Shown here piece after piece: positions 1,243 to 10,009 of a stretch of 10,009 nt of DNA (its first letter is position 1; every line of letters begins with the position of its first letter). Made by a program: the position numbers and the translations under genes. Origin of the DNA: a virus (lineage: Duplodnaviria > Heunggongvirae > Uroviricota > Caudoviricetes); IMG/VR virus record IMGVR_UViG_2734482786_000008; one strand, 5' to 3'. Below the pieces are notes generated by a model that saw only the letters and a list, made by a program, of their open reading frames with translations, ran no database searches and was not told the DNA's origin.

Positions 1243-1959
1243 ATGAACATGGACTTAAAAAAAACACGCTTAGTTAATAGATTAGTTATAGTAATTGTTT
1301 TTTTGCTTTTAACATTCGCTACAATGGAGTTTATTTATCTCTACCTACGCTCTTTGAAGACTGCGCCAAACTATACAGGCACAGTTAGTGATATTTTGAT
1401 AGCAACAACCAATATTATTTTATCCTTATGCGCAGTTTTTGCGTTCAAAAACATATCAAGTCTATTCAAGGATAAAATATCTGATAGAGCTATAAACAAA
1501 ATAGATACTGCCTTGATGTTTCTTGATGAAAGCATTGAAAAAATTTCAAGTTTATACTTTAACTTGATGATTGCTAAAATTTATAAAAATGGCAGCAATC
1601 CTAAGGATCCTCAGTTAGACAAACAACTTAATGATGCATCAGATAACCTCAGTGGTGCTTTAGATGCAGCATACAAAGCAAAATCCGCTTTCGGATCATT
1701 AAGTCGTTGGAATATAAGTCTAGAGACAGAGCAAGGAAAGCGGAAAGTTAAGCTTGTCAATGATGTTTTTGAATTATGCATGAAATCAACTACTATGTAT
1801 TCTACCTTAATAAAGGAAATAAACCCCAATTCGACATTTATTAGCGATAAAACTTTTGAAACGCTATTTAATGAATTTGATGTAGAAAGGCAAAGACTTG
1901 AAGAAGAGAGTAAAGCTTTAAAGAACGTATCTATTCATCAAATCTTCACAATTAAATAA
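1243..1959 (+). CDS. Hypothetical membrane-anchored protein (238 aa) in an AT-rich cargo block; function unknown
   Basis: A 238-codon uninterrupted ORF in DNA of roughly 25-30% GC, where stop codons are frequent, so a chance ORF is very unlikely. Two hydrophobic helices are predicted by eye (about residues 10-36 and 49-68), followed by a roughly 170-aa hydrophilic K/D/E/N/S-rich domain. No recognisable catalytic or nucleotide-binding motif. The RBS is weak and the start could be M1 (1243) or M3 (1249). Confidence 0.75.
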   Translation: MNMDLKKTRLVNRLVIVIVFLLLTFATMEFIYLYLRSLKTAPNYTGTVSDILIATTNIILSLCAVFAFKNISSLFKDKISDRAINKIDTALMFLDESIEKISSLYFNLMIAKIYKNGSNPKDPQLDKQLNDASDNLSGALDAAYKAKSAFGSLSRWNISLETEQGKRKVKLVNDVFELCMKSTTMYSTLIKEINPNSTFISDKTFETLFNEFDVERQRLEEESKALKNVSIHQIFTIK

Positions 1960-3965: not shown

Positions 3966-6900
3966 GCGTCGTATCCCCCTTGATCGCTGTAGTTACTCCT
4001 GGCTTTTGCCTTCAGCCTGCGTTCACGTTCATCAAGCTGGCGTGCCACCTCCCGCGCAATATCCTGCGCACTTTGTCCTGGCTGCGTCTGAATGATGATC
4101 TGCGTCGGTGCCTCAATCCGTTGAGCGGGCGGCACAGTGGCTGCACGACTCACCATCGCTTCGCCGCCTTTCGCGGGAAGTGCCAAAGGATGTAACGGCG
4201 GAAGCTCTGCAGGCGCGGCAGCAACGCCCATCATTCCGGCAACAACGGCAGCCAGTGCAGCTGTATTTCTCCGACTGGTCACGTTTGCCGGACCGTTGAC
4301 AATTTCAGGCCCGTTTTCACCGACAATGCCGAACTGCCCGCGCGGGATATAGCCGCCGCTGTCATACATCCCCGCAAAGCCATATCCCCATGACGGAAAA
4401 CCACCCGATGGCATCATCACTTTACCGTCTGCATTCACCGTCGCAGGTTGCTGACGCGTCACGCTTTCCGGCAGTTTCGCCTTTGCAGCCTCTTTACTGA
4501 CAATACCGAGTTTCTCCAGCAACCAGGAAACGCCGGATTTCAGGGAGTCCAACGGATGCATGACCATATTCAGCCCTTCCGCCAGTGCCTCCCCGAATCG
4601 TCGCCCCATTGCCGCTGCGCTCTGCAGTTCGGCAGAGGTCGACTTAACAGGCGTCAGCAGATCAGTAAACCAGCCCCACAACGCCTGTACTTTGTCGCCA
4701 ATCCACTGGAACACGGGCTTAAGCGGTTCGAATGCAGCACTGATGGGACCTGCCGCCGCTTTGAATCCTTCCACCACGCCACCGAGAAATGCGGTGATGG
4801 GTTGCCAGTATTTCCAGACAACCAGCGCCACGCCCGCCAGTGCAGTAACCACAAGACCTATCGGACTGAGCAGAGCACCTAACAGACCAGATACGGCATA
4901 CAGGGCAACGCGCAGCATCGCCAGCGGACCGGATGCCAGCACTCGCAACACAGCACCTGCGGCAATCAGTCCACCACGTAGTGCTGCCAGTGGATTCATA
5001 AACATCACAGCAACTGCACGTAAACCGGATAATCCAGACCGCAACAGTGCAACCGGCGCACCTGCTACAGTTTTCAGAACATGTCCCGTCAGTGATGCCG
5101 TGCGGCGCAAAGACGACAACGGCGCAGTAAGTAAACCCGCAGCGTTGCCCGATGAAGCAAGCCCGCGTCGCAGCAGTGCCAGTGGTGCGCCAGCCAGCCA
5201 GGACAACGCGCTGCTGGTTCGAGTTACTGCTGCCGTAACGGAAGGTAACGTTTTGATACCCAGCACAGAGAATCCCAGACGGATGACTGCCAGCGGCCCC
5301 AGCACTGCAGCCAACATCACCGCCAGGGTGCCGAGGCCCACGGTAACCGCAGCCACCACAGCCGCTACTTTCATCAGTGTGCCCGTCAGTTCCGGGTTAG
5401 CTTCCACCCAACGACGCGACGCTCCCGTGACGCTTTTCACCATGTACAGAATATCCATCAGCGGCTGGCGCAGCGTTTCGCCCAGGCTGCTGAAGGTGTT
5501 CTGCGTTCCGGTTTTGACCAGCAACCACTGCGCAGAAAGTGAGTCCTTGTTAATGTCGGATTCTTTCTGCATGGAGCCGAGCGCATCATTGCCCGCAGTC
5601 AGTTTTAGCTGGCGCTGCAGTTCCGGCAGGTTGTTTGCCAGTTTCGCCGCGTCATCGCCAAACTCTTTACCAAACAACATGGTCATGGCAGACAGACGCT
5701 TGTCCTGCGGCAGTGCGTTCACCTTCTCCAGCACACGCTGGATAGTTCCCATCGCATCCTTCGTCATCTGCTTTTCAATCACTTCAGGATTGAGTTTCAG
5801 CAGATTCATCCCTTCAAAGAAACTCTTACTTTGCATGGTGGCAATGGACAATTCACGCACCATCGCGTTTGCTGCACTGGCAGCAACCTCCGGCGCAGCG
5901 CCCAGTGTCAGGAAGGTGGAACCCAGCGCCGCCGCTTTACGATAATCCAGACGATCTGCCACACCGCCCAGGCGTTGCATGACATCAATGATGTCTGACC
6001 CTTTCGACATGGCGTTATCATCCAGATAGTTCAGCGCATCACCGAGCTGTTCAATATTGCGGGTAGGGATTTTGTAGAGCTGGGCGATTTTCCCCAGACT
6101 TTCTGACAGTTCATCCGCTGGCAGCTCAAAGGCTGTTGCCGCCTTTGCTGCCGTGCTGGCGAAGGCCAGCAGGTCACGTTTCTGGTCTTCCCAGCTGTCG
6201 TCAGGATTTGCGACGTTCATGCGCGCACCACCTTCAACCAGTGCGGCAAAGTCCACAGCACCGTTTTCCATCGGCAACTGTTCGCTGGCAGCCTTGATGG
6301 CATCCTGCATTTCGTAAAAACGCGCAGTGCGGTTGCCATTATCATCACGCAGACCATTGACCTGCTTTGCCACACCTTTCATGGCATCTTCCATGCTGGT
6401 ATAGCTTTTTACTGCTGCCATCACTGGCGCACCCATTGCCAGCCCTGCAGCCGTGGTAGTGGCTCCGGCTCCTGCGATGCGATCGCGCACTTCAAGCCGT
6501 CTTGAGTATTGTTCTCTGGCAGCGTTCATCCGTGCCTGTTGTTCACCCAGACGTTTAAGTGCTTTTTGCTGGCCCTCCAGTGCCTGCCTTGTTTCTTCAG
6601 CATTTTTCTTAAGTTCTCGCTGGGCACTACTGAGTTGTCTGGTATCAATCCCTGATTCTTTAAGTGCCTGACGTTGTCTCTGGACCGCCCCCAACAAGCC
6701 GTTATAGGTCTGCTGAAGTTCCTGTACTCGTGTTTTGGCCTGACTGAATAACTTTGCCTGCGCGGCGGTTGGCCTGTTAGTGGCAGCAAATTGTGTGGCG
6801 AGTTTTGCCGCCTCTTCGCGGGCTGCGTTCAGGTTGTTGGCTGTTATGGCTAGTTGCGAGCGCGTCTTGCGAAATTCATCAATTCTGCCAGCCTGCTTAT

Positions 6901-7522: not shown

Positions 7523-8038
7523 TCAGAGGCCAAGTGCGTTGCGGTGCGCTTCCATCAGGTCCACACCGTCCACAATTTCCACCATATTGATCAGGTCCAC
7601 TTCATAGAGCACCTCACCATTGATGGTCAGCTTCGCGTAGCTGTTGGTACTGGTCACTTTGGTGGTGTTGCTTTCGCCCGTCTTCCACTCACCGGAATCC
7701 ACTTCTTTGTGACGTCCACGCACCACAAGCTCCACGGCCTGCACTTCCCCGGTATCGTCACGCTGGATAGAGCCGGTAAAGCGCAGCTGGATTCCATCCA
7801 CCGTAGCTTTGCCCATCTGTTTAAACAGCAGCAGTTCAGTACCACCAATGGAAAATTCTGTATCCAGCGCACTGTCATCAAGCCCCAGATCCACATCCAC
7901 CGCCCCCGGCATTCCGCCGCCGCGATACTTCTCATATTTGCGGGTGAATTTCGGCAGCGTCAGCGACTCAACGATCCCCTGCCAGTTGTTCCCGTCGTTA
8001 AACAGGTTCAGGTGTTTTAATTTGCGTGGTAAAGCCAT
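7523..8038 (-). CDS. FII: Tail tube protein (P2 gpFII-like)
   Basis: 171-aa ORF (P2 FII is about 172 aa) directly downstream of the sheath gene. SD AAGGGGA precedes the ATG. Order FI-FII-E matches P2. Confidence 0.93.
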   Translation of the reverse strand: MALPRKLKHLNLFNDGNNWQGIVESLTLPKFTRKYEKYRGGGMPGAVDVDLGLDDSALDTEFSIGGTELLLFKQMGKATVDGIQLRFTGSIQRDDTGEVQAVELVVRGRHKEVDSGEWKTGESNTTKVTSTNSYAKLTINGEVLYEVDLINMVEIVDGVDLMEAHRNALGL

Positions 8039-8047
8039 GTTGTCCCC

Positions 8048-9220
8048 TTACGCGCTGACCTGGCTGGCGAAATTCACCAGGTACTGATCGGTGATGCGCT
8101 GACGCAGCATCAGGTTTTCAAGTGGCGGCACTGGCGTGTAGTCGTAGTCGATAGTGAGTTTCCCGGCTTTCAGCGTGTCTTTGTCATTCACCGACTCGTC
8201 CAGCCAGCAATCACCACCAATGAGATACCCCTGACTGACCAGGCTGCGCATTTTGGCGCGGATACCTTCGATAATGTCGCGGGCCAGCGACGGATTCAGC
8301 GGTTTGTCCACTGCCCACATGTGCGCTTCTGCCATCGTGTCCATCAGTACCTGCGCCGTGCGGGTGTAGTTTTCGAAGGCAAAGAGCGGGTCATCACTCA
8401 GGCTGCGGGAACCCCAGAAGCGGAAACCGTCTTTACGCACAAGCGTGGTGACGTCGTTCTGGTTCAGCAGACCTGCATCGGTTGCCGGGTCCTGCAGATC
8501 CCAGAACACATCAGCAGAAATTCCGGTGACACCGTTCACGCCCACGTTGGACAGGCTTTTGTGCCATCCGGTCTGCTCGTCAATTTTGGCGCGCAGACCA
8601 AGCGCACGGGCGGTGGCATAAGCCGTTGCTTCGGCATTCAGCACCGTGTCCCAGCCAGTAAAGTCAGGCCAGATCAGCATCCCTTCGCGCTGGCTGAAGT
8701 TTTCACGGTAAGTGATTGCTTCCTGCACCGTCTTGCAACCATACGCTGACAGGTAGGCAAACCCACGCAGGCTTTGCGCCACGCTCAGCAACTCAGTCGC
8801 AACGGCTTTGTTATCGTGACCAGGTACGCCGAGAATGCGCGGTTTAACGCCGAGCTGTGACTGGGCAGATAGCAGGGCTTTCATGCCTGTTTTTTTACCC
8901 TCGGCGGTCACTGCGCCGATGATATTGGTTGTGGTTTCTTCTTCCGTTTCACCCTGCGGCACACGCACAACAACGGTCACGGGTTTTGCCTGGTCAGCGA
9001 TGGCGTCCAGCGAACGGGCCAGCGTGCCGGACTCACCCGCTTTACCGCTGGCAGTCAGCACATCAGTGATCAGCACGGGTTTATTAAGAGGAAACATTTT
9101 TGCATCGGCATCATCGCCCGTGCAGACCATACCCACGATGGCGGTGCTCACCGTGGTAATGGATCGGGTGCCTTCGTTGACTTCAACAACGCGCACCCCA
9201 TGGTGGTAATCCTGAGCCAT
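8048..9220 (-). CDS. FI: Contractile tail sheath protein (P2 gpFI-like)
   Basis: 390-aa ORF (P2 FI is about 396 aa) as first gene of the tail operon. A strong SD AGGAGG (complement of 9230-9235) lies 9 nt upstream of the ATG (9218-9220). Confidence 0.94.
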
Positions 9221-9296: not shown

Positions 9297-9314
9297 TGTA
9301 CCGTTATTCACACA
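9297..9314 (-). promoter_or_regulatory. Candidate Ogr-dependent late promoter element (TGT-N12-ACA) upstream of FI
   Basis: TGT (9297-9299), exactly 12 nt, then ACA (9312-9314), matching the dyad described for P2/P4 late promoters centred near -55. The centre (about 9305) predicts a start near 9250, about 30 nt upstream of the FI ATG. -10/-35 elements were not confidently identified. Confidence 0.45.
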
Positions 9315-9361: not shown

Positions 9362-9928
9362 TCAGGGAGATTCATTGCTCTTATTTGCCGGAAATTTTCT
9401 ATAAATGGTAGAAACGCCTACATCAAAAATCAGTGCAATACGCTGTCTTGATTCTCCGGCCTCGAGTAAACGCCCAATCTGTGCCCACTGTTCGGTGGTC
9501 AACTTAGGACGGCGTCCACCTACTCTGCCTTTGGCACGAGCTGCAGCCAGCCCTGCCCTGGTACGTTCAACTATCAGTTCGCGTTCCATTTCAGCCAGGG
9601 CACCCATGACATGAAAAAAGAAACGGCCCATTGGGGTGCTGGTATCAATACTGTCAGTCAGGCTTCGGAAATTCACGCCTCGCTGACGCAACTCTTCTAT
9701 CAGCGTAACAAGATGCCGCATACTGCGCCCCAACCTGTCCAGCTTCCAGACAACCAGCGTGTCTCCTGCCGATAGTGTCCTGAGCAGTTTTTTCAACCCT
9801 GGTCTGTCGGACTTAGTGCCACTGATTTTATCCTCAAAAATCCGCTCACATCCCGCGCAGTTCAGTGCATTACGTTGCAAATCGGTGTTCTGGTCATTTG
9901 TTGACACGCGTACATAGCCAATAAGCAT
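9362..9928 (-). CDS. Serine-recombinase DNA invertase (Hin/Gin/Cin/Pin family)
   Basis: Translation from the ATG at 9926-9928 begins MLIGYVRVSTNDQ with the catalytic-serine motif and is similar along its length to Hin/Gin-type invertases (VVWKLDRLGRS, MGRFFFHVMGALAEMERELI, GGRRPKL, C-terminal HTH GVSTIYRKF). The track ORF extends to 9973 (203 aa), but AGGGGG (complement of 9935-9940) is placed correctly for the 9928 start, giving 188 aa. Confidence 0.92.
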   Translation of the reverse strand: MLIGYVRVSTNDQNTDLQRNALNCAGCERIFEDKISGTKSDRPGLKKLLRTLSAGDTLVVWKLDRLGRSMRHLVTLIEELRQRGVNFRSLTDSIDTSTPMGRFFFHVMGALAEMERELIVERTRAGLAAARAKGRVGGRRPKLTTEQWAQIGRLLEAGESRQRIALIFDVGVSTIYRKFPANKSNESP

Positions 9929-9929
9929 G

Positions 9930-9960
9930 ATCATCCCCCTGAATAAAAACCGGGGATGAT
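9930..9960 (-). repeat. 9-bp inverted repeat spanning the invertase ribosome-binding site
   Basis: ATCATCCCC (9930-9938) and GGGGATGAT (9952-9960) are exact reverse complements separated by 13 nt. In the minus-strand mRNA the 3' arm contains the SD and ends 1 nt before the ATG. There is no U tract after it, so it is not a terminator. Confidence 0.4.
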
Positions 9961-9983
9961 GCCAGTTAGCCATTATCTCTGCA

Positions 9984-10009
9984 TTTTCATAAACGTTGGT
10001 TTGGGAGAA
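9984..10009. other. Candidate invertase crossover site (hix/gix/cix-like 12-2-12 imperfect palindrome)
   Basis: TTTTCATAAACG-TT-GGTTTGGGAGAA. The right half-site complement, TTCTCCCAAACC, matches the remembered TTATCNAAAACC half-site consensus at 10 of 12 positions; the left half matches at 9 of 12. It lies about 55 bp upstream of the invertase start, where gix/cix sites sit relative to gin/cin, and abuts the window edge. Confidence 0.4.

Follow-up and report, generated by a model that had tools for sequence, protein, structure and literature searches.

Genetic setting of the prophage arm

The DNA analysed here (the window; 10,009 nucleotides) is the right arm of a P2-like (Peduoviridae) E. 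coli prophage integrated at ssrA, together with its chromosomal flank. It corresponds to bases 2–10010, reversed, of locus L012, which belongs to a 33,578-bp contig from an E. coli draft assembly (JUCG01000039.1, GCA_000798215.1) identified by an exact match to the tape-measure protein. Past smpB, the flank matches E. coli chromosomes with 100% identity, and the prophage lies at the 3' end of the tmRNA gene. After an orphan open reading frame, the phage genes follow on the minus strand in the order ogr, D, U, T, E/E', FII and FI, and an invertase gene and a crossover site occupy the far end. The features on which the analysis draws are:

1–483: smpB, in the chromosomal flank of the prophage end
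698–1060: ssrA (tmRNA gene), encoding the tag ANDENYALAA
3962–7039, minus strand: tape measure gene T
7523–8038, minus strand: FII
8048–9220, minus strand: FI, the P2-type tail sheath gene (Pfam Phage_sheath_1, sheath_1C and Gp18_domIII_N), directly downstream of the invertase gene
9362–9928, minus strand: serine DNA invertase gene of the Pin/Cin/Gin/Hin subfamily (188 aa, catalytic Ser9, C-terminal HTH)
9839–9910, minus strand: putative recombinational enhancer (gene nt 19–90), homologous to the annotated P1 cin enhancer
9844–9858, minus strand: distal Fis-consensus 15-mer GCGCGGGATGTGAGC (gene nt 71–85)
9892–9906, minus strand: proximal Fis-consensus 15-mer TGTCAACAAATGACC (gene nt 23–37)
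9956–10009, plus strand: reading frame through the crossover site (…N V G L G E)
9984–10009, minus strand: 26-bp crossover site TTCTCCCAAACC AA CGTTTATGAAAA, organised as 12-2-12 with the core dinucleotide AA at 9996–9997

The invertase gene lies 141 bp upstream of FI. In P2, the slot between the tail-fibre genes and FI carries Z/fun. Between the invertase stop and the FI start, a TGT-N12-ACA dyad (TGTGTGAATAACGGTACA; 9297–9314, minus strand) has the motif of Ogr/Delta-dependent P2 late promoters; three such dyads occur in the whole window, which makes this one weak evidence. It faintly suggests that FI retains its own late promoter and that the invertase is a separate inserted module.

At the prophage end, the orphan open reading frame (1243–1959, plus strand) sits as a cargo gene between ssrA/att and ogr. 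It encodes 238 aa with a hydrophobic N-terminus and has a GC content of 31% versus 52% for the window. It had no match in Pfam, PADLOC or PHROGs, and none by tblastn among 50,697 phage records, and the closest relatives lack it, their alignment with the window beginning at 2165–2184.

An intact serine invertase upstream of FI

Read from its first ATG, the open reading frame at 9362–9973 (minus strand) is 203 aa long. The ATG at 9928 (MLIGYVRVST..., 188 aa) is the start that matches Gin, Cin and PinE, and a GGGGGA stands 7 nt upstream of it. Calls of the invertase with an N-terminal extension of 15–27 aa are an annotation artefact (203 aa from ATG 9973; 215 aa, partial, in the source record), and the span 9362–10009 (the last 648 bases) given in a preliminary description of this DNA is such a partial gene call, running to the end of the source contig.

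The translation contains the motif VRVSTNDQ with Ser9, and Pfam places a Resolvase N-terminal domain (2.2e-53) ahead of an HTH_7 domain (1.4e-15). The protein matches PHROG_125 DNA invertase at 8.8e-101 and the Gin structure 3UJ3 in the PDB at 7.9e-93 over residues 1–184, with gamma-delta resolvase at 2.1e-34. It is 100% identical to the protein of phage Cartapus, 83.5% to e14 PinE, 77.1% to P1 Cin and 73.9% to Mu Gin, and presumably about 66% to Hin. Both its size and domains and its greater closeness to invertases than to resolvases place it among the Fis/enhancer-dependent invertases. This exact protein is extremely common, being indexed in 9692 blocks of an assembly collection; a PADLOC search gave no match for it. 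Residues Q150/R153/L154 are equivalent to Q151/R154/L155 of Hin, with AQIGRLL in the window aligned with EQAGRLL of Gin; these Hin residues were proposed to contact Fis and are conserved uniquely in DNA invertases (McLean et al., PMC3798978). Together, the open reading frame, the Ser9 motif and the C-terminal HTH bear out the earlier claim of an intact serine invertase gene upstream of FI, while the Pfam, 3UJ3 and 74–84% Gin/Cin/PinE matches uphold its assignment to the Hin/Gin family.

A weak terminator-like hairpin followed by TTTATT is found at 9948–9967 (minus strand), between the crossover site and the invertase start. Upstream of e14 pinE this stretch is conserved in part; it might shield the invertase gene against read-through from the segment. 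A promoter scan returned no sigma-70-like promoter on the minus strand between the crossover site and the invertase ATG. The invertase promoter of Mu reaches into the segment, and that of the window may do likewise.

A crossover site shared with e14

The crossover site lies upstream of the invertase gene, with 55 bp between it and the ATG. Its outer half-site, CGTTTATGAAAA, is turned toward the invertase, and the invertible segment begins with the 12 bp of its inner half-site, TTCTCCCAAACC. The preliminary description had proposed a 26-bp site of 12-2-12 form about 55 bp upstream of the invertase start, which is what is present at 9984–10009. The palindrome it had pointed to is there as well, but by arm match it does not rise above chance: the window holds 35 12-2-12 palindromes with 8/12 arm complementarity, against about 28 expected. 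The palindrome was accordingly rejected as evidence by itself.

We regard the site as real because three other lines of evidence coincide. First, of the 18 positions specified by the invertase half-site consensus TTNTCNNAAACC, it matches 17, compared with 12 for the next best 26-mer in the window. Second, when aligned with known sites it is identical at 26/26 positions to the pinE-proximal (pin) site of e14 in K-12, at 19/26 to cix and at 17/26 to gix. Third, it is kept at the same place with 0–2 mismatches in all 11 relatives examined (L001–L011; see below), and without change in Cartapus.

The plus-strand frame that crosses the site from 9956 would lead into the invertase-proximal, unexpressed C-terminal cassette of the tail fibre. 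Its ATG at 9956 is likely to be an artefact of annotation. An open reading frame of 126–366 aa with Collar or Gp53-like_C domains starts at the equivalent position in Cartapus and L002–L011. This frame, running from the ATG into the silent cassette, is labelled in the relatives as a separate 'tail fiber protein'.

A putative recombinational enhancer within the invertase gene

In the P1 GenBank record, the enhancer of Cin-mediated inversion is annotated at cin nt 19–90, and the equivalent region of the window is identical to it at 56/72 positions, ungapped. The degenerate Fis consensus KNNYRNNWNNYRNNM, reportedly that of Hübner and Arber, matches the same two gene positions in gin, cin, pin and the window gene. 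In the window, the proximal 15-mer is 97.5 bp centre-to-centre from the crossover site and 48 bp from the distal one, the register of the first Fis site being ambiguous by 1 bp. In hin, 47 bp separate the centres of the two Fis sites, and the native distance from hixL to the enhancer is about 100 bp, or 99 bp (PMC3798978). The DNA between the two 15-mers of the window includes the AT-rich ATTTG and TAATG, corresponding to the minor-groove contacts ATTTA and TAATG in hin. Both 15-mers fall within conserved coding sequence, and their conservation is thus not independent support for enhancer function. The enhancer that had been expected in the 5' part of the invertase gene appears, by homology, to be present, and Fis would be predicted to bind there.

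Relatives carry the partner site and an invertible tail-fibre segment

We examined 11 relatives with an identical invertase, namely phage Cartapus (L001) and ten E. coli chromosomes (L002–L011). In every one of them, a partner site (TTCTC[G/A]CATACC TT GGTTTGGGAGA[A/G]) lies within the Phage_tail_fib gene, the homologue of P2 H; it is inverted and has an identical TT core. The distance from site to site ranges from 1557 to 3408 bp. The H-side site codes for Y L G L G E, read in the frame that also crosses the window's site. Either cassette would fuse in frame, since the tail-fibre frame reads G-L-G-E through the inner half-site at the invertase end as well as at the H end.

In most of the relatives, the segment contains the C-terminal end of H and a Caudo_TAP chaperone gene and then, in convergent orientation, another Caudo_TAP gene and another C-terminal cassette. 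Collar or Gp53-like_C domains are present in the cassettes. The exceptions are L006, whose segment has no called genes, and L005, L010 and L011, where one chaperone is reduced to a remnant of 62–65 aa. The segment of L010 (E. coli KO11FL, CP002970.1), 2852 bp long, has an IS element with HTH_Tnp_1 and rve open reading frames at 5846–6645.

Exactly two sites bounding one segment were found in 10 of the 11 relatives, and a nested second pair in L002 only. The preliminary description had placed an invertible tail-fibre segment beyond the window, and relatives that share both the invertase and the site support this. Its word for the system, 'shufflon', does not hold in the strict R64 sense: R64-type shufflons use the tyrosine recombinase Rci and have three or more crossover sites bounding several segments that invert independently, whereas the recombinase here is of the serine type, and those ten relatives have a single two-site segment.

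In L002 (GCA_003547705.1), the additional site-like pair is located at 4538–4643 and 7842–7945, about 80 bp inside each outer site. The site-like sequence reads …TT GGTTTAGGAGAA ACGATAAATCT…, written also as …TT GGTTTAGG[A/C]GAA ACGATAAATCT…. An ambiguous base (N) stands beside the core of one nested site, and the H gene of this genome is truncated at 378 aa. L002 may be a multi-site version that resembles the published EPEC case described below.

Both orientations occur among related genomes

Over 1220 bp, the segments of L010 and L011 are 99.8% identical and lie in opposite orientation relative to the invertase. The segments of L004 and L008 are likewise inverted with respect to each other (87.9% identity over 935 bp). 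On a wider scale, two alternative invertase-side junctions were found, one in 70 and the other in 355 complete E. coli genomes (coverage of 80% or more).

Coexistence of orientations has been documented experimentally in comparable elements. For e14 in K-12, both orientations coexist in culture, as confirmed by PCR (PMC4272514). In EPEC E2348/69, tail-fibre inversion takes place in two P2-like prophages, with coexisting variants seen by sequencing (Goldberg et al. 2014, PMC4272514). One of these prophages has three inverted repeats and four variants, for which PCR confirmation is stated and which the authors call shufflon-like; the other is a simple two-variant switch, documented in supplementary figures (PMC4272514).

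Two assemblies end at the crossover site

The source contig JUCG01000039.1 ends one base past the 26-bp site (window 10009 is L012 position 2). An independent Logan contig (SRR25448369, L013) stops at the same base (window 10009 is L013 position 2), so that two assemblies break at the branch point, indirect evidence for both orientations in the window's strain. The extra end base is a G on the plus strand of the window, and this is the last base common to the alternative cassette starts seen in the relatives (gcggc…, gccag…, ggctc… and ggtgc…). An exact 62-nt search for the window's own junction gave 0 matches in a collection with one genome per species.

Exact identity between the partner sites amounts to only about 15 bp, too short to break the assembly of a clonal population, and the break is therefore attributed to two read continuations. 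From this we infer that the contig break reflects the presence of both orientations in the sequenced cultures. Cassette DNA repeated elsewhere in the genome, in another P2-like prophage or in e14, offers a different and, in our assessment, unlikely reason for a contig to end here. It has in its favour that up to 6 places per E. coli genome match the region, that up to 11 match a cassette junction, and that the e14 site is identical at 26/26 positions. Against this, the short partner-site identity has just been given, and the break falls at the exact base of cassette divergence in assemblies from different pipelines. Repeated DNA would in any case bear on the contig-end argument alone, and leave the nature of the element as it is.

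A tail-fibre switch as the preferred reading

What is shown comprises the gene, the site and the enhancer homology in the window, the segment architecture in the relatives and the occurrence of both orientations among genomes. We consider it very likely (probability of about 0.9) that the far end of the window is the control module of a tail-fibre switch of the Mu G / P1 C / e14 P type, carried by a P2-like prophage. By extension from the relatives and the contig ends, we infer that the partner site and cassettes exist in the window's strain as well, and that inversion is active there.

Under this reading, dimers of the 188-aa invertase would bind the site at 9984–10009 and the inverted partner site in the tail-fibre gene H. 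Two Fis dimers would occupy the enhancer, which falls within the first 90 nt of the invertase coding sequence, and all these parts would come together in an invertasome. Four strands would then be cut at the central AA/TT, and one pair of subunits would turn through 180 degrees, inverting a segment of ~1.5–3.4 kb. As a result, the constant N-terminal part of H, ending …LGLGE, would be joined to one of two C-terminal receptor-binding cassettes, each with its chaperone gene, and virions would emerge with one of two host ranges.

A frozen relic would leave a similar trace: the window's strain could have kept the invertase and one site after the partner site or cassettes were deleted or disrupted, and inversion would have ceased. 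The contig ends at the site, with the rest out of view, and damage is seen in some of the relatives, where the segment of L010 carries its IS insertion and that of L006 is free of called genes across much of its length; stfE of e14 is, in addition, annotated as a pseudogene in K-12. These points are outweighed by the intact invertase open reading frame, site and (by homology) enhancer in the window, by the retention of both sites in 11/11 relatives, and by two independent assemblies that break exactly at the branch point expected from orientation heterogeneity. We therefore hold a relic to be quite improbable. A resolvase- or integrase-type recombinase unrelated to tail-fibre switching, standing beside a chance palindrome, would suit the Pfam domain name 'Resolvase' and an 8/12 arm match at chance level, but it can be dismissed given the 74–84% identity to Gin, Cin and PinE, the far weaker gamma-delta resolvase match (2.1e-34 vs 7.9e-93 for Gin), the 26/26 site identity with e14 and the conserved, invertase-specific Fis-contact residues.

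Implications of a probable tail-fibre switch

A tail-fibre switch at this position implies that virions of two receptor specificities are probably released from this prophage, and that a host-range prediction made from a single assembly orientation would be incomplete. Beyond annotation the importance is small. The right edge of the window becomes the boundary of a host-range switch, and the switch accounts for the stop of the draft contig and for two annotation artefacts, the extended invertase and the short 'tail fibre protein' open reading frame.

The 26/26 identity of the site with the e14 pinE site, taken with invertases that are 83.5% identical, predicts cross-action between co-resident systems. 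It is conceivable, although we would sooner doubt the two ideas jointly than accept them, that the invertase of the prophage and Pin-type systems resident alongside it may be active on one another's sites and that the contig-end coincidence may be a marker of actively inverting loci. If so, one such system could sustain inversion of the other's segment once the recombinase of the latter has decayed. There might also be occasional recombination between prophages, swapping tail-fibre cassettes or inverting large chromosomal intervals. Base-exact contig ends at crossover sites could provide a cheap genome-wide marker in draft assemblies.

Comparison with known systems

The system is an ordinary one and already known, and experiments have demonstrated that P2-like prophages of E. 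coli undergo inversion (PMC4272514). Nothing of substance is new, because this invertase already carries a Gin-homologue annotation beside tail-fibre genes in a RefSeq phage, the Gin/Cin/Pin/Hin mechanism is textbook knowledge and P2-like inversion is published. Two mildly useful extras are that contig ends coincide to the base with the crossover site, and that this site is identical to the one in e14.

The prophages of EPEC E2348/69, which are likened here by description and not by sequence, share with the window a P2-like E. coli background and invertase-driven tail-fibre inversion; they differ in that one of them has three inverted repeats and four variants (PMC4272514).

Mu G/Gin and P1 C/Cin have the same mechanism and layout, with the enhancer in the 5' part of the recombinase gene. 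The likeness to Mu extends to the gene order, S-U / U'-S'-gin, and to a site upstream of the recombinase gene. In P1, by contrast, cixL overlaps the 3' end of cin, and cin reads toward the segment. Both Mu and P1 have larger segments (3 kb and 4.2 kb) in other phage backbones. Salmonella Hin has in common with the window the 26-bp sites, a 5' Fis enhancer about 100 bp from the site and the Fis-contact residues. The hin gene lies inside its own segment and switches a flagellin promoter, not a tail-fibre coding fusion.

Phage Cartapus (Peduoviridae, Elveevirus, NC_070909) is 96.9% identical in its tail-region DNA over 7.8 kb, and its record lists a 'DNA-invertase, Mu Gin homolog' beside tail-fibre and assembly genes. 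It is a different isolate, and the inverted repeat shared by its cassettes is longer (75 nt at 79%).

The e14 P segment with PinE (K-12) has the order stfP-tfaP / tfaE-stfE-pinE, and thus the same arrangement of a constant part, a site, two convergent cassettes with chaperones, a second site and an invertase reading away. It also shares the pinE-proximal site and the gene positions of the Fis-consensus matches, with PinE as close to the window's invertase as stated above. The two differ in the partner half-site, which is CTCTCGAAAACC in e14 versus TTCTCGCATACC in the window's relatives, and in their setting: e14 is a defective lambdoid element, whereas the window's module belongs to the prophage of a P2-like myovirus, where it is placed between tail-fibre genes and FI.
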